Notes: generated by a model not told the origin, from the sequence alone. A stretch of DNA of 64,000 bases from an uncultured Gammaproteobacteria bacterium (GCA_963773125.1 CAVZBC010000079.1:28761-92760), one strand, 5' to 3'; positions 21,683 to 42,234 are shown, numbered from the stretch's first letter. Translations and numbers: made by a program.

Positions 21683-22444
21683 TCAAGGGATAGGATAGTA
21701 CCAGTTGAGGAGTTCTGGACCCCAGACCATGGCGATCAGCGCTCCTATGGCCAGGAATGGACCAAAGGGCACTGGGTCCTTGCGACCTTTTTTCTTCAGG
21801 AGGATAAGACTGACGCCGACCGAGGCGCCGAGCAAGGCACTAAACAGGATGGTCACTAAGACCGCCTGCCAACCGAGGAAGGCGCCGATCATGGCGATCA
21901 GTTTAATGTCCCCTCCCCCCATACCTCCTTGGCTCACCAGAGCGATAAGGAGAAATAGCCCCCCACCCAGGCATACACCGAGAATACCATTAACGATCCC
22001 CACGGAGGTCAGCGTAAGACTGGTAAATAATCCGACGAGTATCCCCGGTAGTGTGATGGCGTCAGGCACAATCTTATGGGCGAGATCAATAAAGGAGATA
22101 ATGAGGAGCGCCGTGGTAAGGAGGATAAAGATGACACTTTCCACTGTGAAGCCGAAGTGATGGTATAAGAAGACATACAATAAGCCGCAGAGCAGCTCGA
22201 CAAGCGGATAACGCCAGGAAATGATGACATGGCAATATGCACAGCGTCCCCCTAGCCACAGATAGCTGAGTACAGGGATATTGTGCCATGGACGAATAGG
22301 CTGCTGACAAAAGGGGCAATGAGAGCCTGGAGTCACAAGAGATTGCCTCCAGGGGAGACGATGGATACAGACATTGGCAAAACTCCCCACGATCGTGCCA
22401 AAAATGAAGGCAAAGAGATATTCAATGGTCAACAGAGTACTCAC
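21683..22444 (-). CDS. pilD: Prepilin peptidase / N-methyltransferase (A24 family, PilD)
   Basis: N-terminal Cys cluster (CPFCQQPI...GRCAYC), the catalytic region GGGDIKLIAMIGAFLGW, and the second Asp region. Confidence 0.9.
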   Translation of the reverse strand: MSTLLTIEYLFAFIFGTIVGSFANVCIHRLPWRQSLVTPGSHCPFCQQPIRPWHNIPVLSYLWLGGRCAYCHVIISWRYPLVELLCGLLYVFLYHHFGFTVESVIFILLTTALLIISFIDLAHKIVPDAITLPGILVGLFTSLTLTSVGIVNGILGVCLGGGLFLLIALVSQGGMGGGDIKLIAMIGAFLGWQAVLVTILFSALLGASVGVSLILLKKKGRKDPVPFGPFLAIGALIAMVWGPELLNWYYPIP

Positions 22445-22485
22445 CGGATCTCCTTCAAGTATGCCTAGGCGCTTCGCAGGAAGCC

Positions 22486-24583
22486 CTACGGGAACTCCCC
22501 TGGCTCTCGAGCTGTCTGATAATCCTGCAGCTGTGCTTGAATGAAGGCTACCAGGCCAGGATCATTGACAGGGTTGATATGGCTCAAGGCTTGTTGGACT
22601 ACGCGGGCTGCCGCCTGACTCTGCCCGGCAGCCTGATAGGCTGCAGCGAGCGTTCGCAGAGTGAGCGGGTGGCGGAAGTCTGTCCCTGCACAGGCCTGCT
22701 CGGCCAGCGCTACGGCCTCAGTAATGTCGTGTGCTGCAGGGGTCGCTTGCGTAATCAGCAGCCAGGCTAAGTTATTGGCAGCTTGAGGCCACTGGGGACG
22801 GCGCCGCAAGGCTTCACGATATGCCACCATAGCGTCACTGCGGTATCCCTGTTGCCATAAAATGCCTGCCAGATTATATGGCGCTTCGGGAAGCAGGGGC
22901 ATGAGCTGGGCCGCTTTGGTGAACGTCGCCATCGCTTCAGTCATTCGGCCCTGCTTCACCATGGCATCACCCAGGTTGTTATAGGGCAGCGCCCAGTCTG
23001 GTCTCAGCCGTAGCGCTGCGGTATAGTGGGCAATGGCTTCGTCGGCTTTCCCCTGCTTCGCCAGGGTAGTGCCAAGATTGTTGTGGGCTTCAGCCCACGA
23101 CGGTTTGAGGCTGAGGGCTTTGGTATAATGCCCGATAGCTGCGTTAAGCTCGCCCTGGGCAGCCAAAGCGTCGGCCAGATTATAGTGGGCTTCAGGCATC
23201 GTGGCCTTGAGCTGGAGCGCTGCGGTATAGTGGGCAATGGCCTGGGGAACGTTGCCCTGCTGCGCCAGGGTTAACCCCAGGTTGTTATGGGCGACAGCAC
23301 TGCGAGGATTTATCTGCAAGGCATGGGTAAACAAGGTGGTTGTATGACGCCAGATCTGGAGCTGTTGACTACTGCGCCACCCGAGAAGTCCAACGATTAT
23401 TACCGCCCCTACGAGGAGTCCTGGCCTGCGTTGACCCCACTCTTGTCCACACCAGCCTACGCCCAAGGCGATGCCAAGCATAGCAAAATAGGTGTAGCGA
23501 TCCGCCACAGTGGAATAGGCCTGAAACAGAAACGGCACCAGACCAAGAACGGGCAAGACACTGAGAGTGAAGACTACTGCAGCAATACCCGATTCCCCTA
23601 TACCGCCGCCGATGCCACCAGACTACGAAACACCCTATGCCAAGCAGCACGGCCGGAAATGCCGCCTTCCCTGCGGTCACCACCAGCTGTGGGGTGCGTC
23701 CGTAATCAGGTCCCAGCTGGAGCGGCCAGAGTATTTTCCAACCATAAAACACTAAGGCGTCGATGGCTACCAGGAGGCGCTGCCACCAGGTCGGGATAAA
23801 GGCCAGGGCCGCATCGGGCTGCTGCACCTTTGTCCAGACGCTCCAGGCCAGCGCCAATAGAAGCCAACCGCTAAGAGGATACCAGACTTTTCTTCCTACA
23901 TAACGCCCAGGGCATGCGGCAAGCACACCGGCAACCAGGGGGGTGACGACTACAGCCGGTTTTGCTAATAGGGCACATCCAAAAGCGACTGTCGCCAGTC
24001 CGTAATGGCTCCATAGCCGTTTTCTTCCTTGGGCGTGAGCAAATTCGAGGTATTGCCACACCGATATCAGGGCCAAAAAACCAGAGAGGACATCTTTCAG
24101 GCCACTCACCCAGGCCACTGCTTCTACTTGTAAAGGATGCAGGGCAAATACCAGAGCCCCCAAGGCGGCGGCCGTGATGCGGTGATGAGGTAGCCCAACA
24201 GAGGGCATCCAGAGGCATCCTACACGATAGACAATGAGGGTGTTTGCGAGATGCAGCAGTAGGTTGAGACGGTGAAACAGGTCCGCGGTAAGAGGACCGG
24301 GCAACAACGTGTGGGAAACCCAGACTAAGGCCCCCCAGACCGTATACGTCAGTGGGATATAGAGATGCTCGTATGGGCTGTGCCAGAAGGCAAGGATGTT
24401 GGCCCAGGTCAACGATATGAATCGAGGGTTGTCGTACACATGCAGATCATCATCCCAGGCGACAAAATTGAAGCCCAGCACTGGCCAAAAAATCGCCGTG
24501 GTTAGAGCCAGCAGGAGAAAGATCAGCCCCCATTGTTGCCAGCGCGGCAGGAGAACCGGGGGTGGGGAACTAAGGGAGTGCAT
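22486..24583 (-). CDS. TMTC-like GT-C membrane glycosyltransferase with TPR domain, paralogue 1 (one frameshift)
   Basis: The membrane domain is in ORF 23369..24637 (FVAWDDDLHVYDNPRF; FALHPLQVEAVAWVSGLKDVL). The last TMs plus ~5 TPRs are in ORF 22486..23556. A 1-nt insertion sits near 23589 (..YRGIG / IAAVVFTLSVLPVLGLVPF..). The span is 2098 nt = 3n+1. The start is inferred at ATG 24581-24583 (MHSLSS), by analogy with the other junctions. Confidence 0.75.
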
Positions 24584-26867
24584 GGCTCGGGGTCCTCTGG
24601 TCGATCTCGGTAAACTGGGCGGCGATTTGCCTGACAAGTTCTTGCTGTCCAGTCGATGTGGCCAGGGCTAAAGCCTGTTTGGCAGTCGTGTGTGCTCCTA
24701 TGACGGCTCCTGTGGCCCGGTAAGCCATGGCCAGCGTAAACAGCGCTGCCGCGTCGCTATAATGCGTGGCCTGGCATGTCTGTTCGGCAAGTGTCACGGC
24801 TTCCGCCACCTCGGATGGTGCAGGAGGACTCGGGGCAAGCAACAACCACACTAACGGCAGAGAGGCCTGCACCCAGCCTGGTCGTAGACGCAGGGCTGCA
24901 CGGTACGCGGCAAGCGCTTCTTGGCGTTGACCTTGATGAATGGCCGCCACGCCGAGGTTGTAGTAGGCCTCGGCCCATGCCGGCCGGAGTTGGAGGGCAG
25001 TGCGAAAATGCTGCATTGCCTCCGCGGCACGGTGTTGTTTCAGGAGTGCATCTCCGAGGTTGTTGTGCGCTTCTGCAAAGTCTGGTTGATACGTGAGCGC
25101 TTGCTGGTAATGGGTGATGGCTTCAGAGATACGTCCTGCGTCATCGAGGCTGCTGCCGAGGTTGTTATGCGCTTCGGCCCAGGCTGGCTTCAGTTGTACG
25201 GCCTGGATATAGTGAGTGAGTGCTTGTTCAAGCTGACCCTGGCGTCGTAACACATTCCCCAGATTATAGTGCACCTCGGCGGCCTCCGGGTCGAGCTGCA
25301 GGGCTTGGTGATACTGCGCTATGGCTTCGTCCACACGTCCCTGGTCGGCCAAGGCAAAACCGAGGTTGCTGTATGCCGCAATGAAATCGGGTTTGAGTTG
25401 TAAGGCTTTGGTATAGTGCGCCATAGCTTCTGCAGGTTGCCCCTGTTGAAACAACACCAGGCCGAGGTTGTTATAAACCGTGGCATAGTGCGGATTGAGC
25501 TGCAGCGCCTGTGCGTAGTGCGCCATGGCTTCTGTATAGTGTTCCTGTTGGGCGAACACCGTGCCAAGCTTACTGTGGGCGAGCGCACTCCGTGGATTGA
25601 CCTGCAAGGCGTGGGTGAAGAGCGTCATGGTATCATGCCAGATGCCCACCTGCTGGGCGCTCCTCCATCCCAACAGAGCAATGCAGAGTCCCGTCGTGAC
25701 CAGCACGAGCTTGACGGATTGGACTCGGCCTACTGCCCACCCGACTGCCAGCGCTGGCCCGATGACGGCAAGATACACGTAGCGATCCGCCACTGTAGAA
25801 TATCCCTGGAAAAAGAAAGGTACCCAGCCTAACACGGGAAGTAACGCTACCGTAAACAATTTGGCACCTAATGTGATCCCTGTAAGCCAGCGTCGTCCCC
25901 ACCACAGCCCAAATCCCAACAATACAGGTACACCTCCCGTCAGAAGCCACCAGCCCTGGTGTAATACCAGCAGTGGTGACCTGCCATAATCAGGACCCAA
26001 GCTGACCGGCCAGAGAAGCTTGCCGAGGTAGAATGCCAGCGCATCTGCCACTATCACAGGGCGATTCCACAGAGGGACAACGAAGTTCATGGCGGCATCA
26101 GGCTGCTGCCATTTGCTCCATACTCCCCACACGAGGGCGAGCACTATCCAGCCTGCCAGGGCTGAGGTGGCTTCCCTGCGCTGTTGACCCAGTCCACTTG
26201 TCGCCAGTAACCACGCAAGAAGAGGCACCATAACTGCCGCAGGTTTTGCCAGCAGGGAGAGTCCAAAAGCGCCTGTGGCTATCACGTAGTGGCAGGTCCG
26301 TTGCGAGCCCTGAGGCGCCTGCACGTATGCGAGGTATTGCCACAATGCCACAACTGCCCACCAGCCACAGAGCACGTCTTTGAGTCCACTCACCCACGCC
26401 ACGGCTTCGACTTGTAGGGGATGGAGTGCAAAGATAAAGGCGCCTGCTGCTGCAGCCCAGGGACTACGGTTAGGCCATAGCACTGGAGGATGGTGCCAGA
26501 GGAGCAAGCCAATGCGGTACACTACCAGGGTGCTGCCGAGATGGATGAGCAAGTTGAGACTGTGACAGAGGCGGGCGATCATGCCTTCTGCAAAAAAGGC
26601 CTCGGAGAACCACGTTAGCACGGCCCAGGTCGTGTAGGTTAAAGGCATATAGAGACCCGCATATGGGGCACGCCAAAACCTGCCTACCTGCGCCCACGTC
26701 GTGGGCTGAAAGCGTGGATTCGCATACACGTGATGGTCATCATCCCAGGCAACAAAGTCGTACTGCATGACGGGTCCTAACACGGCCATGGTAGCGAGCA
26801 GCAACAGCCCACCCAAGAGATATGGGAATGACCAGGCCACAGCAGGTGCCGGCTTAAGGAACTTCAT
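24570..26867 (-). CDS. TMTC-like GT-C membrane glycosyltransferase with TPR domain, paralogue 2 (765 aa, ~7 TPRs)
   Basis: FVAWDDDHHVYANPRF in the first loop, FALHPLQVEAVAWVSGLKDVL (DUF1736-like), YSTVADRY, then seven 34-aa TPR units (..AMAHYxxALQLxP..NLG..). Confidence 0.8.
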   Translation of the reverse strand: MKFLKPAPAVAWSFPYLLGGLLLLATMAVLGPVMQYDFVAWDDDHHVYANPRFQPTTWAQVGRFWRAPYAGLYMPLTYTTWAVLTWFSEAFFAEGMIARLCHSLNLLIHLGSTLVVYRIGLLLWHHPPVLWPNRSPWAAAAGAFIFALHPLQVEAVAWVSGLKDVLCGWWAVVALWQYLAYVQAPQGSQRTCHYVIATGAFGLSLLAKPAAVMVPLLAWLLATSGLGQQRREATSALAGWIVLALVWGVWSKWQQPDAAMNFVVPLWNRPVIVADALAFYLGKLLWPVSLGPDYGRSPLLVLHQGWWLLTGGVPVLLGFGLWWGRRWLTGITLGAKLFTVALLPVLGWVPFFFQGYSTVADRYVYLAVIGPALAVGWAVGRVQSVKLVLVTTGLCIALLGWRSAQQVGIWHDTMTLFTHALQVNPRSALAHSKLGTVFAQQEHYTEAMAHYAQALQLNPHYATVYNNLGLVLFQQGQPAEAMAHYTKALQLKPDFIAAYSNLGFALADQGRVDEAIAQYHQALQLDPEAAEVHYNLGNVLRRQGQLEQALTHYIQAVQLKPAWAEAHNNLGSSLDDAGRISEAITHYQQALTYQPDFAEAHNNLGDALLKQHRAAEAMQHFRTALQLRPAWAEAYYNLGVAAIHQGQRQEALAAYRAALRLRPGWVQASLPLVWLLLAPSPPAPSEVAEAVTLAEQTCQATHYSDAAALFTLAMAYRATGAVIGAHTTAKQALALATSTGQQELVRQIAAQFTEIDQRTPSHALP

Positions 26868-28626
26868 GATGTGTGAACCTCTGTGTGTATGCGGGGAGCA
26901 GGGCTTCGATCTGGTGGACCAGGGAAAAATTTCTGGTCGCTCTCGCCTGCGCCAGGGCTGTTCGGTATGCCGAAACGGCCTCGGTGATGCGGCCTTGCTG
27001 CGAGAAAATATTTCCTATGTTGTAGTAGACATCCGACCAGCCGGGTTTTAAGAGCAAGGCTGTGGCATACTGCGCGAGTGCTGCGTCATGTTGCCCCTGG
27101 GCACCGAGGGTAACTCCCAGGTTGTTATGCGCCGCGGCCCAGCCAGGTCGGTAGTGCAGAGCGGTGTTATGGTGGGTGATAGCGTCATCGAACTTGCCCA
27201 TCATAGTGAAAATTTTCCCCAGGTTATAGTGTGCTTCTGGAAGATCAGGCCGTAGTTGTACGGCCGTCTGAAACGACGTGAGTGCTGCGTCCAGACGCCC
27301 TTCCTTGGCGAAGGTAAGACCGAGGTTGTTATGTGACATGGCACTCTGGGGGTTCACCTGCAAAGCGTGCGTGAGGAGGGTCATGGTATCGCGCCATATG
27401 TGCACTTGCTCGATACTGCGCCAGGCGAGCAGGCTGACCAGGAGGGCTCCAGCAATCCACACGCTGTACCTCCGACTATGGTTCTGGATCCACCACCCTC
27501 CCCCGAGCGCTACTCCCACCATGGCAAGGTATACATAACGGTCAGCCACAGTAGAGTAGGCCTGAAACATAAAGGGGATAAAGCCGAGGACGGGTGCCAA
27601 GCCAGCAACAAACACGCTGCCAGCGAGGAGGAGCCCTGGCCATTGTGTTCTCCGGCGCCACAGGATCACCCCGAGCCCAAGTGGCACCATACCCGTAAGC
27701 AGCCCCCTGCCCTGCTCGATAACTATTTGAGGCATCCGTCCATAGTCCGGGCCCAGGCTCATGGGCCACAGCAGTTTGCCCAGGTAAAAAGCCATGGTAT
27801 CAAGCGCCAGCAATGGTCGAACCCATAACGGGGCCACGAACGAGAGGGCCATATCGGGCTGCTGGCTCTTAGTCCAAATGCCCCATGCTAGCGCTATGAG
27901 CAGCCATCCGCTCAAGGCCCGACAGGCCTGTTGCCACGGTTGTCCGAGTCCTCCTATCGCCAGGAGCGCGGCCATGATTGGCCCAGCGACAGCCATTGGT
28001 TTGGAAAGCAGTGCACAGCCAAACGCTACTGTGGCGATGCTATAGTGGAGTGTTTGTTTCCACTTCTGGTGGCTCTGTACAAAGCTCAGGTACTGCCACA
28101 GAGCCACAACTGTCCACCAGCCACACAGGACGTCTTTGAGACCGCTCACCCACGCCACGGCTTCTACTTGCAGCGGATGCAGACCAAACAACAAGGCTCC
28201 GAAGCCAGAAGCGACAACCGACTGCATGCTGGGGGGTGTCCGACGATGAAAAAGCAGCAGGCTGATACGGTACACCACAAGTACACTGCCGATGTGCAGG
28301 AGCAGGTTGAGGCGATGAAATGCTTCCGCTGGCATGGGGGCGGCGTGCTCTGTCTGACTCAGCCAGGCAATAGCGGCCCAGACCGTGTAGGTCAATGGAA
28401 TGTAGAGGTGTTCATAAGGCGCACGCCAAAAAATCTCCAGGTTGGACCAGGTGAATGGGGACAGGTATGGGTTGGCGTAGACATGCAGATCATCGTCCCA
28501 CACCACGAAATCGAAGCGAGTAACTGGGCCAAATACCAGCAGGAGGACGCTGACCAAAATAAGGGCCGCTCCCCACACAGGGCGGATATTGCTGACAGGG
28601 GTGACCATGGAGTTACGGCATGCCAT
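26854..28626 (-). CDS. TMTC-like GT-C membrane glycosyltransferase with TPR domain, paralogue 3 (~590 aa, ~4 TPRs)
   Basis: FVVWDDDLHVYANPYL, FGLHPLQVEAVAWVSGLKDVL and four TPR units. The start is chosen at ATG 28624-28626 (MACRNSM), which gives the same 14-nt overlap as the other junctions. ATG 28606-28608 is also possible. Confidence 0.75.
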   Translation of the reverse strand: MACRNSMVTPVSNIRPVWGAALILVSVLLLVFGPVTRFDFVVWDDDLHVYANPYLSPFTWSNLEIFWRAPYEHLYIPLTYTVWAAIAWLSQTEHAAPMPAEAFHRLNLLLHIGSVLVVYRISLLLFHRRTPPSMQSVVASGFGALLFGLHPLQVEAVAWVSGLKDVLCGWWTVVALWQYLSFVQSHQKWKQTLHYSIATVAFGCALLSKPMAVAGPIMAALLAIGGLGQPWQQACRALSGWLLIALAWGIWTKSQQPDMALSFVAPLWVRPLLALDTMAFYLGKLLWPMSLGPDYGRMPQIVIEQGRGLLTGMVPLGLGVILWRRRTQWPGLLLAGSVFVAGLAPVLGFIPFMFQAYSTVADRYVYLAMVGVALGGGWWIQNHSRRYSVWIAGALLVSLLAWRSIEQVHIWRDTMTLLTHALQVNPQSAMSHNNLGLTFAKEGRLDAALTSFQTAVQLRPDLPEAHYNLGKIFTMMGKFDDAITHHNTALHYRPGWAAAHNNLGVTLGAQGQHDAALAQYATALLLKPGWSDVYYNIGNIFSQQGRITEAVSAYRTALAQARATRNFSLVHQIEALLPAYTQRFTHHEVP

Positions 28627-30688
28627 ACAACACCTCCTTCTGGACAAGGTCTGGGAAGTAGGTATGGACCCGAGCGACGATATCGGCATCTGCAGCGGCA
28701 GTCGCCAGGTCCAGGGCCTGCTGGGCCGTTGCGTACGCCTGGGCCGCATGTTGCACAGCCTGGTACGCCACCGCCAGAACAAAGACTGCCAGAGGGTCGC
28801 GGTACTGTGTCGCGACACAGGCTTGTTCAGCCAGGGTTACGGCCTCGGCACCCCTCTGCACTGCAGGTGAGGGGTGTGTCGCTACAAGCCATGCCAGTTG
28901 GGTAGCAGCCTGGGGCCAGGTTGGTCGTAATTGGATGGCCATACGCAAGGCCGCGATGGCCGCATCGTGCTGGCCCAGGTGTGACAACGCCAGACTAAGA
29001 TTGAAGTAGGCCTTGGCATGGTTAGGCTTCAGTTGCAGCGCCCGGGCAAATTGCCGCATTGCTGCACCATATTGCTCCTGGGCAGCCAGAGCAATACCCA
29101 GGTTGTTATAGGTTTCCGCGCTATCTGGGGCGATTGCTAACGCCTGTGTAAAATGCTCTATGGCCTCCACAGGCTGACCCTGGCGCACCAAAGCAAGACC
29201 GAGATTGTTATAGGCGTTCACATAATCCGGCCTGAGACGTATCGCCTGGGTATACGCTGCAATGGCTGCGTCCAGCTTGCCCTGATGAGCCAGGGCGAGT
29301 CCAAGGTTGTTGTGGGTGTAGGCAGAATCTGGGCGCACCTGGAGCGCCTGCTGATAGTGCGCTATGGCCTCTTCGAGGCGGCCTTGTGCGGCAAAGGTGA
29401 AGCCCATATTATTGTGCGCCAGAGCGCTCCGTGGGTTCACCTGCAGGGCATGGGTGAACAGGGTTTCAGTATTCTGCCACACCTGCACCTGGGTGTGGCT
29501 CTTCCATCCCATAAGACCCAGAACCAGCAGGCCCAGCAGTGTGCAGACCGTATGCAGTCTGGTGTACTGCCCGGCCCATGCCAGGCCAATGGCTGGACCA
29601 AGGAGGCTCAGATAGGTATACCGGTCAGCCACGGTGGAATGCCCTTGAAAGAGAAAGGGCACGAATCCCAGGACAGGGAGTAGGCCGATGCTAAATACCG
29701 CCGCAGCGAGCCACAAGCCCCAGTATGAGTGGCGTTTCCACCATAGCACCAGCAGTCCGAAGGGCAGTATCGCCATGGTAGCGCTCCATCCTTGCGCGAC
29801 AATACTCTGCGGTGTGCGCCCGTAATCTGTGCCCAAACCGACAGGCCAGAAGAGCTTGCTGAGATAAAAAGTTATGGTGTCCACAGCAATGAGTGGTCGT
29901 GTCCAGAAAGGGGTAAGGGACACAATGGCCGTATTCGGTTGTTGGGTTTTGGTCCAGATACTCCAGACGATGGCTGTGCACAGCCATGGCCCAAGCCATC
30001 GGGCTGCCTGCTTCCAGGGCTGCCCTATGCCGCTTGTGGCCAATACCCAGGCGAGCGCAGGGACAACCACGGATGATGGCTTGGCTAGCAAGGCGAGGAT
30101 AAAGGCTGCGGTGGCGAGTCCATAGTGTATCCAGCGTCGTTGCACGGCTTGGGCTTGTACACATGCCAGATACTGCCAGAGTGCGATGAGTCCCCAGCAG
30201 CCTGCGAGGACATCTTTCAGACCACTCACCCAGGCCATCGCCTCCACCTGCAACGGGTGGAGGCCGAAAATCAGTCCAGCAACCGCTGCCATTCCTGCCG
30301 TATGGGCCGCCGTTCCCGCTTTGCGCTGATCCAACAGCAATATGACTAGACGGTACACTATGAGTACGTTGACAAGATGGAGTAAAAGGTTAAGCGCGTG
30401 GAACAGGTCGGCGGTATAGGAGCCTGGTGCAAGGCGTTGGGAGAGCCAGGCGACGGCCGCCCACACGTTGTAGGTTACAGGAATGTAGAGATATTCATAA
30501 GGCTGGCGCCAAAAGGCTCCAACCTGTGCCCAAGTCACAGGATGGAAGCGTGGATTGTCATAAACGTGTAGCGCATCGTCCCACGCCACAAAGTCGTAGC
30601 CCAACACAGGACTATATATGGTAGCCGTAATGGCGACGACCAGGAGGCTAAGAAGTGTAACAATATGGCTTTTCTTCTGTCCGCACAT
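28613..30688 (-). CDS. TMTC-like GT-C membrane glycosyltransferase with TPR domain, paralogue 4 (691 aa, ~5 TPRs)
   Basis: FVAWDDALHVYDNPRF, FGLHPLQVEAMAWVSGLKDVL, HSTVADRY, and five TPR units plus a capping helix. Confidence 0.8.
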   Translation of the reverse strand: MCGQKKSHIVTLLSLLVVAITATIYSPVLGYDFVAWDDALHVYDNPRFHPVTWAQVGAFWRQPYEYLYIPVTYNVWAAVAWLSQRLAPGSYTADLFHALNLLLHLVNVLIVYRLVILLLDQRKAGTAAHTAGMAAVAGLIFGLHPLQVEAMAWVSGLKDVLAGCWGLIALWQYLACVQAQAVQRRWIHYGLATAAFILALLAKPSSVVVPALAWVLATSGIGQPWKQAARWLGPWLCTAIVWSIWTKTQQPNTAIVSLTPFWTRPLIAVDTITFYLSKLFWPVGLGTDYGRTPQSIVAQGWSATMAILPFGLLVLWWKRHSYWGLWLAAAVFSIGLLPVLGFVPFLFQGHSTVADRYTYLSLLGPAIGLAWAGQYTRLHTVCTLLGLLVLGLMGWKSHTQVQVWQNTETLFTHALQVNPRSALAHNNMGFTFAAQGRLEEAIAHYQQALQVRPDSAYTHNNLGLALAHQGKLDAAIAAYTQAIRLRPDYVNAYNNLGLALVRQGQPVEAIEHFTQALAIAPDSAETYNNLGIALAAQEQYGAAMRQFARALQLKPNHAKAYFNLSLALSHLGQHDAAIAALRMAIQLRPTWPQAATQLAWLVATHPSPAVQRGAEAVTLAEQACVATQYRDPLAVFVLAVAYQAVQHAAQAYATAQQALDLATAAADADIVARVHTYFPDLVQKEVLYGMP

Positions 30689-30835
30689 GGCTCTCGTCGG
30701 GGGATCAGTACCAGCGCCTGTGACAGGTCTGGCAAAATAGACTGCCGCTGTTTTCTCTGCTCTCGCAAAGGTCCTATCGGCAGAAACCGGTTTTCAATCG
30801 AGTCTGTTTTTTTGCCAGAGGTCAACGTGCTGCAT

Positions 30836-32515
30836 TTATGGCAGTGATGGCTCATCCGTTGGTGTCATACCTCTTGCCAGTGCGTCAGGGGCAACCCGTT
30901 TGAAGATGTAGACAGCTTCTGAGCCGCGGTCGAAGTCTGTTCTTGCCCCAAAATTGTGCCACGGCAATTCAGGGCGGTGTGTATCACGCCAATACACGTC
31001 GAGGACCTCGACCAGTTGAAACTGGGAGAGTGGACCACTGTCGCCCCTGTTCAGAGGGTGTTGCAAGAAAAAGGTAAGAAGCTGTGTCGTCGCTGCATGA
31101 CTGCCAAAGGCGATAAACCAGTCAGGAAGGTATTGCTCGATGAACACAGGGGCCTGTAGGGTAGTAACTACTGAGCGCGGCAGCTGTGTATGATGGTTCA
31201 ACAGACAACAGAATACCAGTGTCTCCCCTGTATAAAACATAAGAGGGTAATTCATATGCGGTGGGTAGGCAAACACCAGATCATCATGCTTGGCGTGGCG
31301 TTCCAGAAACTCGCTCACGGCTCTGTACGCAGTGGGGTAATCTTCATGAACTTCCTTGAGGTAGGCTGGGAGAAGCCAGCGAAATTCGCTGTGGAACGGC
31401 GTCAGCGTAAAGACATTCGTCGTCACATTGACCAGAAAAAAGGTCATGGCTACGGCCGGCATTTTTTCATGGAGGGTCCCGAGCAGGATGCCAACCACGC
31501 CAGTGAAAAATGGCAGCACTGGAATGAGATATCGCACGTCAGCGATAGTCGAAGCGCCGGTCGGTTGTGGCGAAAATAGGGCGAGGCAAGCGACATAGAT
31601 GAGACTCAGGATGAGCCATTCTCGCATAGTGCGCATGACGGGAGTCTGCTGGGTGCGGCAGCGTATGAGGAACACTCCTCCTCCTACTGCAGCGATCCAT
31701 GGAAAATAGCCAATAAGGTTGAGATCGCGGAGATTCCACCACAAGAGTGTTGCTTTGCGAATGTACCAAACTTCCCTGGCAGGAATGTCTGGGCGATACC
31801 ATATCTCATAGTAGAGGGCATATGGGATCGTCGCCGCAGCAATCAGGGAGAGTGTGCAGAGTCCTTTCCCCCACTCCTTGACGGATAGATCGTGGCTATG
31901 GAACACGCCATGCACACTCATCAAGGCAAGTAAAAACGCCCCGCCGAGTAAATGGTTGCTATAGAAGAGTAGCGTTGCCCAGAGGGCTAGAGCGAGAAAA
32001 TCACCCCAGTGTTTGGTACGTAGACAGGCACGGTAGCTCAGGTAAGTCAAGAGCGAGAAGAGCAGTGCTAAGGCATAGTATCTACATTGCCGGATATTCA
32101 GGAGAAATGCCGTTGAAAAGGCGAGACTGCCTGCGGCATACCCCCAGAACTGCATCTTGTTCCCGAGGATGTCGTGCATCAACCGGATGAACACGACCAC
32201 GCTGAGCAAACCCGCGATGACAAAGGGGAAGCGCCCAGCCCAGGTCGAGGCGCCAAAGGCCCGGAAAGAGGCGGCTGTGACAATGTATTCCAAGGGAGGA
32301 TTGATGATGCGCAAGTGTGGATCGAGCAGGGTGCCATTCCGAAAAGCGAAGAGATTACGGCCATCCCAGCCTGTGAAATGCCCTGTGGCGAGAAAATTCT
32401 TGGCGATGATGCCAACGTGGGCTTCATCGTCCCAAAAATAGGTATTGTGCAGGTGAGCAAGGCTCACATAAGTACAGGCCAGGCACCCCAGAATGAGGAC
32501 GTATAGAGGTTTCAT
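30836..32515 (-). CDS. ArnT/PMT_2-like GT-C glycosyltransferase (GT39/GT83-type), no TPR domain
   Basis: Polytopic protein with YFWDDEAHVGIIAKNFLATGHF in the first loop and NPPLEYIVTAASFRAFGASTWAGRFPFVIAGLL, which follows the ArnT pattern (DE..ya.iA, kPPL.yw, fG.s.wa.R). ATG 32513-32515 is preceded by a GAGGAGG RBS. Confidence 0.7.
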   Translation of the reverse strand: MKPLYVLILGCLACTYVSLAHLHNTYFWDDEAHVGIIAKNFLATGHFTGWDGRNLFAFRNGTLLDPHLRIINPPLEYIVTAASFRAFGASTWAGRFPFVIAGLLSVVVFIRLMHDILGNKMQFWGYAAGSLAFSTAFLLNIRQCRYYALALLFSLLTYLSYRACLRTKHWGDFLALALWATLLFYSNHLLGGAFLLALMSVHGVFHSHDLSVKEWGKGLCTLSLIAAATIPYALYYEIWYRPDIPAREVWYIRKATLLWWNLRDLNLIGYFPWIAAVGGGVFLIRCRTQQTPVMRTMREWLILSLIYVACLALFSPQPTGASTIADVRYLIPVLPFFTGVVGILLGTLHEKMPAVAMTFFLVNVTTNVFTLTPFHSEFRWLLPAYLKEVHEDYPTAYRAVSEFLERHAKHDDLVFAYPPHMNYPLMFYTGETLVFCCLLNHHTQLPRSVVTTLQAPVFIEQYLPDWFIAFGSHAATTQLLTFFLQHPLNRGDSGPLSQFQLVEVLDVYWRDTHRPELPWHNFGARTDFDRGSEAVYIFKRVAPDALARGMTPTDEPSLP

Positions 32516-32550
32516 TGGGCCTCCTCTGCACCAATGGCGTCTCAGGCTGT

Positions 32551-34316
32551 TCAATGACTTGCCAGGCGTTTGAGGAAGGCCATTTCTCGGCGGGGGTCCT
32601 CAACATGATTGAAGTAAAACCGTTTGAACTTCAAAAAAGTAGTGGACACTTCCTCAGACGACAAGGTGTGTAATCGAGCGATATACGCATCGAGCTGGGT
32701 GGGAAAATCCATGAACACTGCTCCGCGCTGCTGCAGCGCTGCCATGAGGGGTGGATCCCAATGCAGGATCCGACCGCGAACCCCATCCAGGAGGATTTCA
32801 CTCCTAGGGATGAACTGATCGAGACCCAGGGCAAAGGGACCGCCTGGGTGAAAGATGAAATGGACTTGTCGTTCGTCGATGAGATACGACACCGGAGCGT
32901 GTTTTTCATGACCAATACGCCCACGATGTTGGAGAGTCTGCCTGGCAATGAAACGGTCCGTCAGACCGGTTTCGCTCTCGATGGCGATGGGGATCGCGGC
33001 GCGGTAGACGAGCCGTGCTTCTGCACCAAAAAAGGCCACCCGTACGGGCAGGCCGGCAAAGTAGCGTTTCAAAACGACGGCATGATGATCGGTCGTCTCA
33101 TCCCGCCTTGACACATAATACATCCACTCATTGCTGATGCCCTTGACCCATTGCGTGTCTGTAACCGGAAAGGGAGTGAGCAGGAAACTCAGACTCAGTA
33201 GAGCTGCTAGACCAATATGGATCAAGGGTTGTACAGCGGAGAGTCGAATCAGGCCGAGCTCGAGTACAATGAGATAGAAAGGCACAGTGGGGACGAGCAT
33301 GCGGGCAAACATAAAGTCTCCACCGATACGTATGATGTAAACCGTATACGTAAAAGCAAAAGTACCTGCGAGGAGCGCCTGAGGCATCAACTGCCGTTCC
33401 TGAGACAGCTTCTGCTGGCAGACGCCAGGCTCTCCACAGCACAGCAAGGAGACAAAGGGGGGCTGGCAAGAGTGCCCAGTACTTACGAAAGTACAACACG
33501 GCGTATTGCCAGCCCTGCGCATACCAGGTCAAGTAAGCGGACTTGGCGTAATAGGTGTTGGGGAAGAAATCTTCGTAGTACAACAGCCGCCAGGCTACAA
33601 ACGGCACCCATAGCACAGCGACACTTAGACCATAGATGAGAGTGCATTGGAACCGGGGTGTTGCCGTCAACACCACAAAGAGACCGGCGATAGCGGCGAG
33701 AAGTATACCATCAGGCCTAGTCAAAGCCGCTAACCCAAAGACAAGGCCAGCTCGCGACAAGCTGTTTAGGGCCGAGAGCTGCGGGAGTCAGTAGGAGATA
33801 TCCGACCAGAAGCAAGAAGGTATACAGGGAGGTTTCAAGCCCACTCGTGGCATAGATGTTCCAGTCCAAATGAAACGCCGCTCCCAAGGCAGCTATTGGT
33901 AATGCCAGCGGGCCGGTGGACACCAGTTGTCGGAGCCGAAAGTGATAGGTGATGAGCAAGGACACTGAGCCTACATAGCAGGCGATGCCCCAGAACTGCG
34001 ACCATCCTTCAGCGGTGTATCCTAAGGCCAGACCGGGGGTAATCCAGAGCGTCCAAAGAAAATTTGTATAGCCTTCAACGCGCTCTCCTGCATTGAAGAC
34101 CAGGCCGAGTCCTGCCAGTAGGTTATGGGCGTATCGATAGCTAATATAAGCATCGTCACATATCCAGGCTGCAGCAACTGCTGCAGCAAGACTCCAGATA
34201 AATGCGAGTAAGGCGCTATAGCCGACTGTACGGGACTGCTGAAGAGCTGCCGTGGCGGCTCTGACCTTGTTCAACACGTCAGTTGTTCCTTTCAGGGTGA
34301 GCAATGAGCGGAGCAA
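32551..34316 (-). CDS. Second non-TPR GT-C-like membrane protein with a C-terminal soluble domain (two frameshifts)
   Basis: Three consecutive ORFs (33717..34316, 33128..33760, 32551..33522) read as one polytopic protein. The first loop carries a DD motif (WICDDAYISYRYAHNLLAGLGLVFNAGERVEGYTNFLW). Shifts lie at ~33717-33760 and ~33400-33522. The start codon is uncertain (TTG 34316 or a downstream GTG). Confidence 0.55.
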
Positions 34317-34605
34317 TAACGATCAGCATAAGGAGCGCCGCGTGTGCCTCACAAGCGTACTAGCCAGGAAGCAATAAATATGCCAGGTGTCTGGAGAGGC
34401 AAGGCCTGCCTTGGAGAGAGAGCATCACCTCGCCTCGCCGTTTCGTCGCTGCTCCATTCACCTGTGAACGCACTTTCCATCCTCTCTCCGTTCTTTTTAC
34501 TGTCAGATTTTTGACTAGAATGCCATAAAGCTACCGCGCTGAGAGGACAAACGGGCCAGAAAGATAGGAAGGACGCTGGCAAACTCTCGCTACTATGTCA
34601 TCCAG

Positions 34606-34649
34606 AAAGGGCGGCATGATGTTTGCTAAATCCCATTTAAAGGGCGGCA
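34606..34649. promoter_or_regulatory. Two perfect 11-nt direct repeats (AAAGGGCGGCA) in the divergent promoter region
   Basis: Copies at 34606-34616 and 34639-34649, 33 nt start to start (about three helical turns). They lie upstream of the sigma54-like element and the ppm1-like gene. Confidence 0.5.
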
Positions 34650-34667
34650 AGTGGAGTCTAATAGATC

Positions 34668-34683
34668 TGGCACAGACGAGGCT
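34668..34683 (+). promoter_or_regulatory. Sigma54-like -24/-12 promoter element upstream of the ppm1-like gene
   Basis: TGGCACAGACGAGGCT has a perfect -24 TGGCAC and correctly spaced GG-N10-GC, but a weak -12 (AGGC instead of TTGC). It is followed by RBS AAGGAG (~34698) and ATG 34714. Confidence 0.35.
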
Positions 34684-34713
34684 CTCGTTTGCAGATGAAG
34701 GAGTGACGGCTGC

Positions 34714-35551
34714 ATGGTAAGTTCTGAGATTACTTCTAGACGAGCCGAGGTCCAGACACTTCTTCCAGAAATGCCACAGTTATCCATTATTGTGCCCACG
34801 TTTCAGGAGGTTTCAAACCTCCCGTTGTTGGTCGCGGAAATCACCTCAGCTGTGGCACCGATGCTTCCAGATTGGGAGGTGATCATCGTAGATGACAATA
34901 GTCAGGATGGGTCTGTTGAGGTCTGCGAACGGTTACGGGATGAAGGGTACCCCGATCAGAATCGTGGTCCGTACCAATGCCCGTGGGCTTTCCTCCGCCG
35001 TTGTTGAAGGTTTTACGCATGCACGAGCCCCTGTGCTGTTGGTCATGGATGCTGATCTTTCACATCCTGCGGACGCCATTCCTCGTCTCTATACAGCTAT
35101 TATAGAGGGCGCTGATTTTGCTATCGGTTCGCGGTATATTCCAGGTGGGAGCACCGATGATCGGTGGAGTGCATACCGCTGGCTCAATTCCAAAGTGGCC
35201 TCTGTGCTAGCCAAACCATTGGCGTCGTTGAGTGATCCTACCGCTGGATTTTTTGCGTTACCCCGCGCGCTGCTAGGGCAGTGTGCACCGCTGAATCCTG
35301 TGGGATATAAGATTGCCCTTGAAATTCTCATCAAAAGTCGGGCCTGCCGTATCCAGGAAATTCCGATTCATTTTCGCACCCGACGGTTTGGCAAGAGCAA
35401 ACTAAAGCTGAAACAGCAGGTGCTTTACCTCTCTCACCTGTATGCTCTCTACAGGTTTAAATTTTCCCAGACTGCTCCTCTTCCACACACAACCACAGCA
35501 GCCCTTCCCTCCCCCTCAGTACCGCTGCACGATAGAGAAAAAGTCCGATAA
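34714..35551 (+). CDS. GT2 polyprenyl-phosphate sugar (mannose-type) synthase, Dpm1/Ppm1/GtrB-like (one frameshift)
   Basis: The motifs are LSIIVPTFQEVSNLPLL...WEVIIVDDNSQDGS (ORF 34714..35007), then IRIVVRTNARGLSSAVVEGF...VMDADLSHP (ORF 34892..35551). The span is 838 nt = 3n+1. Confidence 0.8.
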
Positions 35552-37368
35552 TGCGACACAAACAAAACTATTTGATCGCACTAGCAGCGTTAGCTCTCAT
35601 AGTGTTCTATCACATGATATTTCGACAATTCTTCCCAAATATGCATGGGAAAATGGGTCACGATTATGCCTTATTCTTGCCTAAACTATTAGATGGGTAC
35701 TTTTGGTTCAGTATAAACGGCATTTTTTCTATTCCATGGTTTACCCCAGCATTTTGTGGAGGTATCCCCCTTTTTCCAGATCCACAGAGTATTTATTATT
35801 CTGTTCCACAGTTTCTGAGTTTTGTATTCGATCCAGTTACTAGTGTGCATATGACAGTTATGCTCTTTGCTATATTAGGATTCTTGGGGTTTTATATATT
35901 ACTGCAGAGAGTGTTTCAAACAGGAGCATGGCTGGCTCTATTAGGGGGAGGGCTTTTTCTCTTTAACGGGTTTTATATACATCGGATGCTTATAGGGCAC
36001 CTTACCTATCATCCCTTCATGCTGATCCCGCTGCTCGCCTTCTTTCTTTTACGCTCCGGTGCTGCGACACCGTCACGGGGAGCGAGAGGCGTTATGTTGG
36101 ATGGGGTGATGGCGGGGATAGTACTGGCGTATATGTTTCAGGCAGGAATGGTCAACGTGACCCTTCCCGCCGTCGGCAGTGTTATTATCATCGGGTTAAT
36201 GTATGAAGCGATCCATCACAAAACAGTACGATTCGGGTTACGGCTGATCTGTGCAGGGGGCATCGCTGTCGCGTTCTGCAGTGCTAAATTGGTTGCGGCT
36301 ATGGCATATCTGCACTACTTTGGGCGGGACATGTACAAACTCCCAGGAACACAGACTCTGGCAGAGGCGGTGCTGATCGCGCTGCATTCGTTATTTATTG
36401 CTCCTGCCTTCGCGCTTGCGCATGAGATGTTGGTCAATGTGCAGTGGGGTCTGGACCGACATGAATTCGAGTTCGGGGTGACCTTGGTGCCCTTGGTATG
36501 GCTATTCGGAGGCAGCATGGCCATGATCCATCGTGCACGAAAGCACGGGTTGTCCTGTCATTCCCTACGCCAACAGTGGTTCCGTATCGTTCTCATCGGT
36601 GGTCTCCTCTTTCTACCGATCTGTCTGAACTATTATACGCCTACCTGGAATGCCATCCTCAAGCACCTACCGATTCTCAAAAATAGTACCTCACTTATTC
36701 GCTGGATAAGCCTCTATATCCCGGTGGTCATTGTGCTTACCGCCCTCGCCGGGGCAGTGCTGCGCTCACCAACCTTCCATCCGTATGCAGTGGTCGCGAG
36801 TTTGGCGACCGTGGTCCTGCTCAATATCTGGACTGATCGTCAGTTCTATCATGATCAAAGCTATGATCCCCGCCAGATTGTCACGGCCTATAACGAGGTA
36901 CAACTGCAGGGCAGGTCGCCAGGGATTACGCATATTGTCATGTATACGGATCAGAGGGGCCGAGGGATAATGCCCCAGGGGCGGAATGACGTTTTGGTGC
37001 AGGGCGGTTCTCAGTTACTGTGCTACGAACCCCTGTTTGGTTATGCCTTGGAGAAGTTTCCCATACGAACCTTGCGTCCGGATTCGGTATTCGCGGTGCG
37101 TGAGGAATACCTCAATCTGAAGAATCCTGTGTGCTATGTCTACCCGCTGGAAAATGCCTGTGAGCCAGGAGAGCATTTCTTAGTAGATCAACAGGAAGTG
37201 GCAAAAGCTTTCAGCACCTACAAACCGATTCCCTTTCGTCTGCCAGCGTGGCAGAAAGCCGCTAATGTTTTCAATCTCCTTACGCTAGTGGGGAGTGGTG
37301 GAGTCCTGCTCGTCGCTGGTGGAGCAAGCTGTCGTCGCTGGTGGAAAAGCCGTAGAGCATCAATATGA
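35551..37368 (+). CDS. 605-aa polytopic membrane protein of unknown family (candidate GT-C/GtrC/YfhO-type partner)
   Basis: The ATG overlaps the ppm1-like stop (TAATG at 35549-35553). It has about 12 predicted TM helices plus a ~190-aa C-terminal soluble part. I recognise no motif. The first ~450 nt are markedly AT-rich. Confidence 0.6.
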   Translation: MRHKQNYLIALAALALIVFYHMIFRQFFPNMHGKMGHDYALFLPKLLDGYFWFSINGIFSIPWFTPAFCGGIPLFPDPQSIYYSVPQFLSFVFDPVTSVHMTVMLFAILGFLGFYILLQRVFQTGAWLALLGGGLFLFNGFYIHRMLIGHLTYHPFMLIPLLAFFLLRSGAATPSRGARGVMLDGVMAGIVLAYMFQAGMVNVTLPAVGSVIIIGLMYEAIHHKTVRFGLRLICAGGIAVAFCSAKLVAAMAYLHYFGRDMYKLPGTQTLAEAVLIALHSLFIAPAFALAHEMLVNVQWGLDRHEFEFGVTLVPLVWLFGGSMAMIHRARKHGLSCHSLRQQWFRIVLIGGLLFLPICLNYYTPTWNAILKHLPILKNSTSLIRWISLYIPVVIVLTALAGAVLRSPTFHPYAVVASLATVVLLNIWTDRQFYHDQSYDPRQIVTAYNEVQLQGRSPGITHIVMYTDQRGRGIMPQGRNDVLVQGGSQLLCYEPLFGYALEKFPIRTLRPDSVFAVREEYLNLKNPVCYVYPLENACEPGEHFLVDQQEVAKAFSTYKPIPFRLPAWQKAANVFNLLTLVGSGGVLLVAGGASCRRWWKSRRASI

Positions 37369-37461
37369 CCGGGTGAATGGGCTGGGAAGGAAGGATGGGT
37401 AATCCTGAACGAGAGGACTCAGGTAGCAGCCGGGTGCCACCGGAGTCCCCTCAAGGCAAGG

Positions 37462-37480
37462 GGTATTACCGGCTAATACC
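37462..37480 (-). terminator. Stem-loop directly downstream of the pilin gene (no U-tract)
   Basis: GGTATTA-gccgg-TAATACC on the minus strand (7-bp stem), 9 nt after the pilin stop codon. It lies in the convergent gap with the 605-aa gene. Confidence 0.3.
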
Positions 37481-37488
37481 GCCAGGAG

Positions 37489-37890
37489 TCACCGTAATGG
37501 TTTTCCCGTCGTCCCATCGGGCACGTTGACGGTCATGGTCAGCGAGTAATCGCTGCCGTCAGACGTGAACGAGACGCTGGTAATCTGCAAGTCTTGCGAG
37601 TTGGATTTCAATGAGCCGCCATTGGCATTCACAATGCTCATGAGCGAGGCCCAGTCCGTGATCGCAGAAGGATACAGATTGCCAGAGCTATCGGCGGCGA
37701 AGTTGGCCATTGAAGCGCGGATACTTTCGCCAGTCCCTACTGCCGAAGCGACCCGGCTCTTGTTACGATAGGCAAGAAAATTCGGCACTGCAATAGCAGC
37801 AAGAATACCGATGATCGCCACGACGATCATCAATTCAATCAGAGTGAAACCTTGTTCCTGTTTACGCGCTTGGCGAAGTCTACTCAGCAT
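37489..37890 (-). CDS. pilA: Type IV pilin (prepilin with class III signal peptide), 133 aa
   Basis: [45 protein letters not shown] has the G-FTLIE cleavage/methylation motif with E5. The N-terminal helix is very similar to Geobacter-type PilA. A GGAGG RBS precedes the start. Confidence 0.9.
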
Positions 37891-41417: not shown

Positions 41418-42234
41418 TTAGGGCACACGCACGTGAAAGAAGGAATCTACAGCATAAAACAACATGGGAGCAGCAAGCAACACGCTATCAATACGGTCTA
41501 AAATCCCACCATGTCCAGGAATGAGTTCCCCGGAGTCCTTGACCCCTGCATAACGTTTGATAAGCGACTCCCCGAGATCACTGACTTGCGCAGCCATCGA
41601 AATGAGTAACCCAAGTACCACACTGTGCCAGAGCTGCAGATGCGGTACAAGGAGAGGCGCACTGAGTATGGCTGTAAGTATGCAGCCCGCCGCACCCCCA
41701 ATGGCCCCTTCCCACGTTTTGCCAGGACTGATGGTCGGCGCAAGCTTTCGTCGTCCCATCCCCTGCCCTACGTACATCGCCACAGAGTCACCAACCCAAA
41801 TGAGGAGGCAGAGGAAGAAAATATACCACTGCCCCTCGGAAAAATTTCTCAGGAGCACTAGATGACTCAGACTCCAGCCGAGAAAGACTACCCCAAACAG
41901 ACTATGTAACAATGCGGAAAATCGTTGTGTACCGCACTGTGACGGTAACAGGGCACGCAGCGTGAGTATCATGATACTGCCAGACAGAGCCAAAGGTAGC
42001 CAGACTTTGCCGCCAAGATAGGCGACGAGTACTAAGGAAGCCGCCACGGCATAACTGACCTTTGGATAGAAAGGCACCTGGATCAGCGCGAGCATGTGGA
42101 AATATTCCCGTAAACTCAGCGTGAGCAGCGCCAGAGTGAAAAGCAGAAACAGCTGCTGCAGGGGCGTAATAGAGAAACAGTAGGAGCGGAGGAAGAATTA
42201 CTGCAGCACTGGTAACACGCTTGAAATGTTCCAT
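41418..42234 (-). CDS. cdsA: Phosphatidate cytidylyltransferase CdsA (one frameshift)
   Basis: The C-terminal signature (SDLGESLIKRYAGVKDSGELIPGHGGILDRIDS) is in ORF 41418..42095. The N-terminal TMs are in ORF 41902..42282, with the likely start at MEHFKRV. The span is 817 nt = 3n+1. Confidence 0.85.

Follow-up and report, generated by a model that had tools for sequence, protein, structure and literature searches.

Gene content of the locus

The locus described here lies at positions 21683-37890 of a 64,000-nt stretch of DNA from an uncultured bacterium (GCA_963773125.1, CAVZBC010000079.1:28761-92760; the whole stretch is called the window, and positions are counted from its first nucleotide). 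It encodes four paralogous membrane proteins with tetratricopeptide repeats (TPRs), named A to D, whose membrane domains are homologous to the C-type glycosyltransferase (GT-C) domain of the metazoan TMTC proteins, together with a GT2 glycosyltransferase, three other polytopic membrane proteins, the prepilin peptidase PilD and a type IV prepilin. Open reading frame (ORF) calls and Pfam searches recovered every gene of a preliminary description of this region at its position (Table 1). The interpretation given there was upheld for the TMTC homology, the label of the GT2, the predicted periplasmic TPRs and conservation in the lineage, and failed in the Pfam matches and the HPLQVE motif on which it had been grounded.

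The minus-strand array is tightly packed and runs from 34277 to 21683 in the order AftB-like gene, 572-aa gene, D, C, B, A and pilD, the terminal gene, which lies 41 nt 3' of paralogue A. The GT2 gene and the 605-aa gene are on the plus strand, divergent from this array, and the prepilin gene, which lies downstream of recA, converges with the 605-aa gene. No type IV pilus genes other than pilD and the pilin gene were found in the window, and promoter and terminator scans of the island were uninformative.

The paralogues are similarly diverged in their two parts, with 41-50% identity among the TPR domains and 49-55% among the membrane domains. In paralogue B the membrane domain spans approximately residues 1-410 and the TPR domain begins at about residue 413; paralogue C has the fewest TPRs. 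With internal ATGs as the true starts of A and C, identical 14-nt overlaps occur at each paralogue junction (24570-24583, 26854-26867 and 28613-28626), as they do in the related 788-kb contig L002. This suggests that the junction was kept through tandem duplication and that the paralogues are translationally coupled.

The Ffh protein encoded on the same contig is 80% identical to a protein from a 'Candidatus Tectomicrobia bacterium' metagenome-assembled genome (MAG) and 73-77% identical to those of Entotheonella/Entotheonellaceae, and the host was therefore placed as an uncultured member of the Tectimicrobiota. Recent horizontal acquisition of the island was considered and dropped, as its base composition carries no foreign signature and its GC content is like that of the flanks.

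Table 1. Genes of the island, with positions in the window (numbered from its first nucleotide)
Feature	Position	Strand	Evidence
pilD, prepilin peptidase / N-methyltransferase, 253 aa	21683-22444	-	Pfam A24_N_bact 3.4e-34, Peptidase_A24 1.6e-20
Paralogue A, TMTC-like TPR GT-C, 698 aa after bridging of a frameshift	22486-24583	-	Two overlapping ORFs; animal TMTC HMM 47.6 bits
Paralogue B, TMTC-like TPR GT-C, 765 aa	24570-26867	-	AF2, Foldseek, hhalign; only TPR families in Pfam
Paralogue C, TMTC-like TPR GT-C, 590 aa from internal ATG	26854-28626	-	Animal TMTC HMM 43.3 bits
Paralogue D, TMTC-like TPR GT-C, 691 aa	28613-30688	-	Animal TMTC HMM 46.2 bits
TPR-less GT-C-like membrane protein, ORF of 572 aa, 559 aa from ATG 32515	30836-32515	-	Sub-threshold PMT_2, E 4.6e-4
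AftB-like GT-C with DD motif, 574 aa in L002, three frames here	32554-34277	-	tblastn with the L002 protein; PDB AftB
Dpm1/DPMS-like GT2, about 279 aa after bridging of one frameshift	34714-35551	+	Pfam Glycos_transf_2 on both halves
605-aa polytopic membrane protein, family without assignment	35551-37368	+	Start overlaps GT2 stop
Type IV prepilin; called length 133 aa, probable length about 141 aa	37489-37890	-	N_methyl 1.2e-10

The TPR paralogues are homologues of the TMTC glycosyltransferases

Because TPR matches swamped the results for the full-length profile and for the full-length AlphaFold2 (AF2) model, a membrane-only alignment and a membrane-only model were made. The bacterial query profile was an alignment of 18 membrane-domain sequences, and the reference was the published alignment of the N-terminal domains of human and fly TMTC1-4 (supplement of PMC7801869). 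Comparison of the two profiles with hhalign gave a probability of 99.3% and an E-value of 1.2e-20 over 347 columns (query 15-386, template 4-399), at a sequence identity of about 21%. All eight TMTCs of human and fly were matched by the bacterial profile in hmmsearch, with scores of 44-71 bits and E-values, calculated for a database of nominally one million sequences, of 6.5e-18 to 7.9e-10. In the reverse direction, the hidden Markov model (HMM) of the animal TMTCs matched A-D at 43-48 bits and did not match the 572/558, 574, 605/606, GT2, pilin or RecA controls. These profile comparisons and reciprocal HMM matches bear out the earlier assignment to the TMTC family: the homology between the membrane domains and the N-terminal GT-C domain of TMTC is genuine, and we regard the enzyme homology and the fold as firm as far as sequence comparison goes.

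The alignment places conserved motifs of the two families on one another. The DD of the first loop is common to both, and the bacterial segments LYIPLTY, LAKP, PDYGR and TVADRY correspond to SHKSYRPL, CKE, CDW and VAERV of the TMTCs; LFALHPLQVEAVAWVSGLKDVL in the bacterial profile likewise aligns with a TMTC motif segment (hhalign). At the level of residues, the Asp of TMTC GRAD falls on bacterial GLKD, the Lys of KE on KP, the DW of the TM7-TM8 loop (TM, transmembrane helix) on DY, and AERV on ADRY. The TM7-TM8 loop could be aligned in profile-profile mode only, with DY replacing DW. These motifs are assigned to catalysis and ligand binding in the TMTCs (Eisenhaber et al. 2021, PMC7801869). 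Among 66 homologues, D42/D43, H149-P-x-x-x-E154, K163-D164, K208 and D361-R362 are either invariant or conserved in at least 90%, D293-Y294 is likewise invariant or close to it, and all of them, P150 included, are present in A-D. The first-loop motif had been given as F[VA]WDD; the DD loop is present, and the motif reads FV[AV]WDD. Paralogues A, B and C carry HPLQVEAVAWVSGLKDVL unchanged and D differs from it at one position, and all 27 family-invariant residues checked are retained in the four paralogues. Because these 27 residues are kept and the gene order recurs in five related contigs, the pattern amounts to more than chance. The TMTC-like paralogues are probably active transferases.

PMT_2 and DUF1736 had been named as the hallmarks of the family in the preliminary description. 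Neither model matched the four TPR paralogues or the 18 family members, even at E<=10; human TMTCs match DUF1736 below 1e-30 (PMC7801869). The segment HPLQVE, previously taken as a DUF1736 motif, aligns instead with the TMTC segment at TM3/EL2; DUF1736 is the TM7-TM8 loop of TMTC, and the TMTC segment at TM3 is 'LFAVHPIHT' (PMC7801869). The TMTC reading had been made to depend on a profile link of this kind, which is absent with the Pfam models and is rescued by direct comparison with the TMTC profile. Pfam PMT and MIR, like PMT_2, did not match the four TPR paralogues, and Pfam and NCBIfam scans of the membrane domains returned nothing besides TPR families. Searches of PDB sequences with single sequences (phmmer) or with the membrane-domain profile found no PMT, ArnT, STT3 or other GT-C.

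Predicted fold and membrane topology

The full-length AF2 model of paralogue B (pLDDT 92.4, pTM 0.84) gave only TPR proteins as Foldseek matches. The membrane-only model (pLDDT 78.8, pTM 0.85) matched GT-C enzymes only, as expected of a GT-C fold: the top six matches were to yeast and canine STT3, archaeal AglB, Chaetomium Pmt4 (TM-score on the query 0.52) and ArnT, with Emb and AftA lower, and no TMTC chain was among the PDB matches.

Mapping of the model helices onto the TMTC alignment predicts 11 TM helices and, in the model, puts the TPR domain on the same side as the DD, HP..E and ADRY loops and the long loop between TM7 and TM8. Over the 18 sequences, the density of Lys and Arg is 0.21 in the short loops of the opposite, presumed cytoplasmic side and 0.062 in the presumed periplasmic loops. 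The AF2 helices, the TMTC alignment and the charge density agree with the earlier proposal that the TPRs are periplasmic, with the N-terminus predicted inside.

The GT2 and the other membrane proteins

The GT2 had been labelled as Dpm1/Ppm1-like, and this label is well supported. Its L002 orthologue matches the Pyrococcus furiosus dolichol-phosphate mannose (Dol-P-Man) synthase (DPMS; 5mlz) as the best structure match, with an E-value of 2e-47 over residues 20-248, whereas the matches to ArnC (1.5e-20) and GtrB (7e-9) are far weaker; no NCBIfam model reaches its cut-off. The protein is, by sequence, a candidate polyprenyl-phosphate hexose synthase.

The second GT-C with a DD motif was confirmed and is AftB-like. 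Its 574-aa L002 orthologue matches mycobacterial AftB in the PDB (9dlf_C; E 1.5e-11, residues 34-340) and, far below the cut-off of 1050 bits, the NCBIfam AftB model NF041481 (E 2.2e-15, 55.7 bits). The window has neither UbiA nor DprE genes. In L001 (46-3942), genes for a UbiA-family prenyltransferase and a DUF362 protein precede that of the 559-aa GT-C, which is followed by five TPR genes and pilD. By analogy, this arrangement resembles the polyprenyl-phosphoribose donor pathways of pentofuranose systems.

For the 572-aa protein, described earlier as an ArnT/PMT_2-like GT-C, the gene is present and the PMT_2 match is below the gathering score (E 4.6e-4, 20.9 bits against a cut-off of 26.1); Agl23 is also sub-threshold, and the L002 and L003 orthologues are recorded as having PMT_2. 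The protein has FWDDEAHV in its first loop and a C-terminal soluble domain. The 572/558-aa protein and the TMTC-like family share the FWDDEAHV / STIADVRY motifs (WDD..H and ST[IV]AD), which is suggestive. The hhalign comparison of the two families is weak (E 0.019, with three sequences only), and searches of PDB sequences by phmmer or profile gave no GT-C match for the 558-aa protein. The TPR array has a 572-like gene directly upstream in L001, L002 and L014, and fragments of one at that position in L003.

The coupling of the 605-aa protein to the GT2, also described before, is seen in the overlap of its start with the GT2 stop, which recurs in L002, L003, L012 and L013; no fold or family match could be attached to it in Pfam, NCBIfam or the PDB. 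In its first loop, G-H-D-Y and D48 are invariant; the C-terminal domain contains Cys, and the protein has a last TM helix. At E<=1e-3 the family counts 297 members or more, every one named 'hypothetical', and hhalign found no relationship to the TMTC-like profile. Members occur in sugar-biosynthesis clusters of an Entotheonellaceae genome and a Desulfobulbaceae genome. In the Desulfobulbaceae MAG (L011 1-14454), the member lies among radical-SAM, DegT aminotransferase, methyltransferase and epimerase genes, with a gene of the sulfatase family and one for a 571-aa TMTC-like TPR protein at a distance of 1-3 kb, the latter 3 kb away. The 605-aa protein may be a GT-C, may act as a flippase or may anchor the soluble GT2.

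Conservation and gene neighbourhoods

The frame of the island recurs in its lineage. pilD occupies the same place after the TPR array in L001, L002, L003, L012 and the P0001 contig, and L002 and L003 match the gene order of the window. L012 carries pilD, four TPR genes, the GT2 with a 610-aa protein, a fifth TMTC-like gene, the pilin gene and recA, and is without the 558- or 574-aa genes. In L013/L014 the order is the pilin gene, an HTTM gene, a 216-aa gene, the 604-aa gene with the GT2, about ten nucleotide-sugar genes, a 577-aa 572-like GT-C and the TPR array; the HTTM-domain protein of L013 (vitamin K-dependent gamma-carboxylase-like) and the 216-aa protein, which belongs to no family, are encoded at 11847-13411, between the GT2 with the 604-aa gene and the pilin gene. 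Glycosyltransferase genes adjoin the pilin gene in the window, L002, L003, L012 and L013, and also in L066 and L070. The variable cargo between fixed ends resembles, by analogy, that of known glycosylation islands.

Conservation of the island was found in the lineage, and the picture is mixed outside it. Three homologues with identities of about 45% stand as singletons. A metagenome scan gave a distant set of 80 loci, whose homologues are 33-48% identical. In this set, a 572-like gene is present in three of the 80 loci, 572-like genes adjoining TMTC-like genes in L026, L054 and L083, and tandem TMTC-like arrays are present in few.

Two distant loci place TMTC-like genes beside pilins. In L070 (2742-15312), genes for a pilB-like ATPase, a pilC-like platform protein, a sigma-54 activator, a pilin, two TMTC-like proteins (691 and 650 aa) and two prepilins follow one another in one direction, and the 691-aa protein scores 86 bits with the animal TMTC HMM, above every window paralogue and the highest among the bacterial proteins compared. 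In L066, the pilin gene is followed after a 17-nt gap by a TMTC-like gene and then by a second one. All classical pilin-type genes in the 80 flanks (3/3) are directly beside TMTC-like genes; the other three prepilin-motif matches there differ in kind and were taken as the planctomycete type. By a rough estimate, well under one pilin gene immediately upstream would be expected by chance across the 80 loci. The adjacency in L066 and L070 is suggestive and statistically not strong, and the pilin link of the island is likewise suggestive.

The pilin of the window has the prepilin leader ...QEQG|FTLIELMIV. Its ORF ends in ...GKPLR*, whereas the 141-aa L002 orthologue runs on with ...GKTITVSPAGINR. 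One more A (AAAA to AAAAA, within 37489-37520) would restore an L002-like frame; the real pilin probably extends about 8 aa further and gains additional Thr/Ser at the C-terminus.

Proposed function and alternative readings

We propose, with about even confidence, that the region is a periplasmic glycosylation island made up of a GT2 donor synthase, four TMTC-homologous GT-Cs, prepilin-type clients and three accessory membrane proteins. On the cytoplasmic face, the Dpm1/DPMS-like GT2 would attach a hexose to a polyprenyl phosphate, which is presumably undecaprenyl phosphate, and the lipid-linked sugar would be flipped by a component encoded outside the island. Mannose is the best guess for the sugar, although a tentative one that we would not put even at half-way. 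The four TMTC-homologous GT-Cs, with 11 predicted TM helices, the DD loop and periplasmic TPRs, would then transfer the sugar to exported proteins, with the TPR domains selecting the acceptors. That the acceptors are proteins is a view towards which we lean slightly. The likeliest among them would be prepilin-type proteins processed by the co-transcribed PilD, the adjacent pilin included, but that pilins are among the acceptors is put forward with some reserve, our confidence staying short of even. The three remaining membrane proteins, the 572-aa GT-C without TPRs, the AftB-like GT-C and the 605-aa protein coupled to the GT2, may extend or diversify the glycan.

Several observations weigh against this proposal. 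PMT_2 and DUF1736 of Pfam do not match the TPR paralogues, as described above, and the Foldseek E-values of the membrane-only model are marginal (9e-3 to 0.1), with probabilities at or near 1. The sequence of the GT2 cannot reveal its sugar specificity, and ORF calls with Pfam showed no flippase gene, GtrA-type or other, in the island (21683-37890). The pilin, which had been called Ser/Thr-rich, is only moderately so: Ser and Thr make up 29% of its globular part, and it has no Cys. The positions of the pilin gene and pilD in the lineage could reflect conserved synteny (uppS-cdsA-dxr-...-recA-pilin) rather than function. In the distant set, pilD is near none of the 80 loci, most TMTC-like genes are singletons in unrelated contexts, and a DPMS-like GT2 lies near TMTC-like genes in just three loci (L020, L061 and L087). 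Two homologues of about 45% identity (L007 8512-9750; L009 8614-9741) lie beside Glyco_transf_9 (GT9, heptosyltransferase-family) genes, which hints that some family members relate to the lipopolysaccharide (LPS) core rather than to pili. In addition, a literature search that covered subscription journals poorly found only passing remarks on bacterial TMTC homologues and no functional study of them.

The distant loci bear on an alternative in which the TMTC-like enzymes O-glycosylate other exported envelope or secreted proteins and not pilins, pilD and the pilin gene holding their positions by inherited synteny. The absence of pilD from the distant loci and the prevalence of singletons just described fit this alternative, as do the absence of further type IV pilus genes from the window and the place of the pilin gene in L012 and L013, within a conserved uppS-cdsA-dxr-pgpA-ligT-recA-pilin block. 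Inherited synteny accounts less well for pilD, which ends the same tight minus-strand array in five related contigs, and for the TMTC-like pairs that stand right after a pilin gene in two unrelated loci, one of them within a pilB-pilC-pilR-like cluster. We consider this alternative unlikely, at roughly one chance in several.

Slightly less probable again is that the GT-Cs modify a glycolipid or polysaccharide, such as the LPS core, lipid A, O-antigen or an exopolysaccharide, with the TPRs docking on assembly or export machinery. The structural neighbours include ArnT, Emb and AftA, one GT-C of the island resembles AftB, a cell-wall arabinan enzyme, distant homologues adjoin GT9 genes, the nucleotide-sugar gene set of L013/L014 is typical of polysaccharide loci, and decoration of polysaccharides by three-component systems of GT2, flippase and GT-C is well known (PMC11127046). 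However, the TMTCs, which act on proteins, are the sole detectable sequence relatives with a known role; the presence of several paralogues, each with its own TPRs, mirrors the TMTC1-4 arrangement that is linked to acceptor choice; and pilin adjacency recurs in L066 and L070.

A reading of the TPR membrane proteins as scaffolds without catalytic activity, serving the assembly of pili or secretins in the manner of PilF/PilW/Tgl, is suggested by the JGI names 'Tfp pilus assembly protein PilF' and 'TadD', by NCBIfam similarity of the TPR part to Tgl and PilW and by co-transcription with pilD, but is highly improbable, given that the Tgl/PilW matches are confined to the TPR region and far below cut-offs, and that conservation is highest in the 400-aa membrane domain, which keeps the TMTC-aligned motif residues and has a GT-C fold.

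The frame disruptions raise the separate question of whether the island is decaying. Five occur across 16 kb, at approximately 23576-23583 in paralogue A, 33750-33766 and 33410-33414 in the AftB-like gene, 34943-34953 in the GT2 gene and 37497-37500, an A-run, at the 3' end of the pilin gene, and they could mean that A, the AftB-like GT-C, the GT2 and the pilin are pseudogenes of a system that is non-functional in this organism. Several disruption sites are at short homopolymer runs, however, and the bridged products are 85-91% identical to intact L002 orthologues over their full length; for paralogue A, tblastn with the intact 698-aa orthologue covered both frames at 90-91% identity. In L002 every gene of the island is intact (pilin of 141 aa, 606, GT2 of 278, 574, 558, 697/664/765/698 and pilD), and the sister assembly L003 fragments the same genes differently. 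Essential housekeeping genes of the window are also split or truncated: mutS (7022-9714) is two ORFs, and dxr (40193-41378), cdsA (41418-42095) and uppS (42533-43150) lack part of their Pfam profiles, which points to an assembly that is indel-prone throughout. Because housekeeping genes are equally affected and L002 is intact, the disruptions are likely assembly errors and not gene decay, of which we see very little prospect.

Two further observations concern the housekeeping genes of the window. The LpxC ORF (2206-3381) has an N-terminal AAA_lid_14 fragment, which is probably an artefactual frameshift fusion with an upstream sigma-54-type activator gene. A tyrosine recombinase gene at 13949-14905 (Phage_integrase with a SAM-like N-domain) lies among the housekeeping genes and follows rpsT in the P0001 contig; it is likely of the XerC/D type rather than a marker of a mobile element.

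Comparison with known systems

In a profile search the membrane-domain family proved very large: 81,340 cluster representatives fell at or below an E-value of 1e-3, and 16,475 at or below 1e-30. Some members carry the automatic JGI name 'protein O-mannosyl-transferase' and others 'TPR repeat protein', PilF or TadD, and GT105 appears in CAZy-based surveys of bacterial data sets. TMTC homologues have been noted 'even among prokaryotes' (Eisenhaber et al., PMC7801869). Within the same limits of journal coverage, our search found no paper that gives a substrate, donor or phenotype for bacterial TMTC-like proteins, in agreement with the preliminary description, and none that describes a pilin-linked TMTC-like locus. 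The island and the pilin-adjacent pairs of L066 and L070 offer a candidate donor synthase, candidate acceptors in the form of prepilins, and catalytic residues. If confirmed, the proposal would explain what a large group of bacterial 'TPR proteins' do, would establish a mechanism not known before by which pilins or envelope proteins are glycosylated, and would provide tractable bacterial models, possibly structures, for the TMTC enzymes, in which mutations cause human brain malformations.

Among the closest counterparts are metazoan TMTC1-4 (CAZy GT105), which O-mannosylate cadherins and protocadherins in the endoplasmic reticulum. Homology extends through the full length of the N-terminal GT-C domain, with the DD, HP..E, (K/R)-x-D, K and (D/E)-R motifs, and the two groups share 11 predicted TM helices, an N-terminus inside, extracytoplasmic C-terminal TPRs and several paralogues per genome. 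A GT2 like Dol-P-Man synthase is also encoded near the bacterial paralogues. The bacterial proteins differ in their predicted place in the inner membrane, facing the periplasm, where the lipid carrier cannot be dolichol; they have no DUF1736 match, carry DY in place of the TMTC DW and have no evident cadherin-type acceptor, and their array ends with pilD. TMEM260 is another metazoan TPR-bearing GT-C O-mannosyltransferase, with distant bacterial homologues (PMC10214176). It has the same architecture of 11 TM helices followed by extracytoplasmic TPRs, but the paralogues match only TPR families in Pfam and their significant similarity is to TMTC; here TMEM260 is set apart by description.

Actinobacterial Pmt (GT39) and Ppm1 follow the same logic, in which a GT2 makes polyprenyl-phosphate mannose and a GT-C mannosylates Ser/Thr of exported proteins. 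The island differs from them in having no PMT or PMT_2 match above threshold, no match to Pmt of the PDB in sequence searches, TPRs, several paralogues and a diderm host. GtrA/GtrB/GtrC, CsbB/YfhO and the pentofuranose systems (Kelly et al. 2024, PMC11127046) also encode a lipid-phosphate sugar synthase (GT2- or UbiA-type) with a GT-C, and have a GT2 translationally coupled to a large polytopic protein. They decorate polysaccharides or teichoic acids, not proteins, whereas the island has no flippase gene and has seven polytopic proteins rather than one.

With Pseudomonas aeruginosa, where the O-oligosaccharyltransferase TfpO/PilO and TfpW are encoded next to pilA, the lineage of the window, L066 and L070 share glycosylation genes beside a type IV pilin gene. 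TfpW is moreover a GT-C arabinofuranosyltransferase that uses a lipid-phosphate sugar in the periplasm; the island has an AftB-like GT-C, and L001 has a UbiA-family gene. Unlike these systems, the island has no O-oligosaccharyltransferase of the Wzy_C type, as no island protein matched Wzy_C of Pfam, and the window has no DprE1, DprE2 or UbiA. The TMTC-like enzymes have TPRs and belong to another GT-C family, and are set apart from TfpW by description.

Protein glycosylation by GT-Cs and pilin-adjacent glycosylation islands are already known as kinds, and the island would be a further form of them. A wider view, which we hold to be doubtful as a whole, is that bacterial TMTC homologues are TPR-guided protein O-glycosyltransferases, served by a Dpm1-like donor synthase, with paralogues setting specificity and with type IV pilins and pseudopilins among their clients. 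If true, it would add a third, previously unrecognised bacterial route of pilin and protein O-glycosylation beside the PglL/TfpO-type oligosaccharyltransferases and TfpW, and would represent a prokaryotic counterpart, possibly the ancestor, of metazoan cadherin O-mannosylation.

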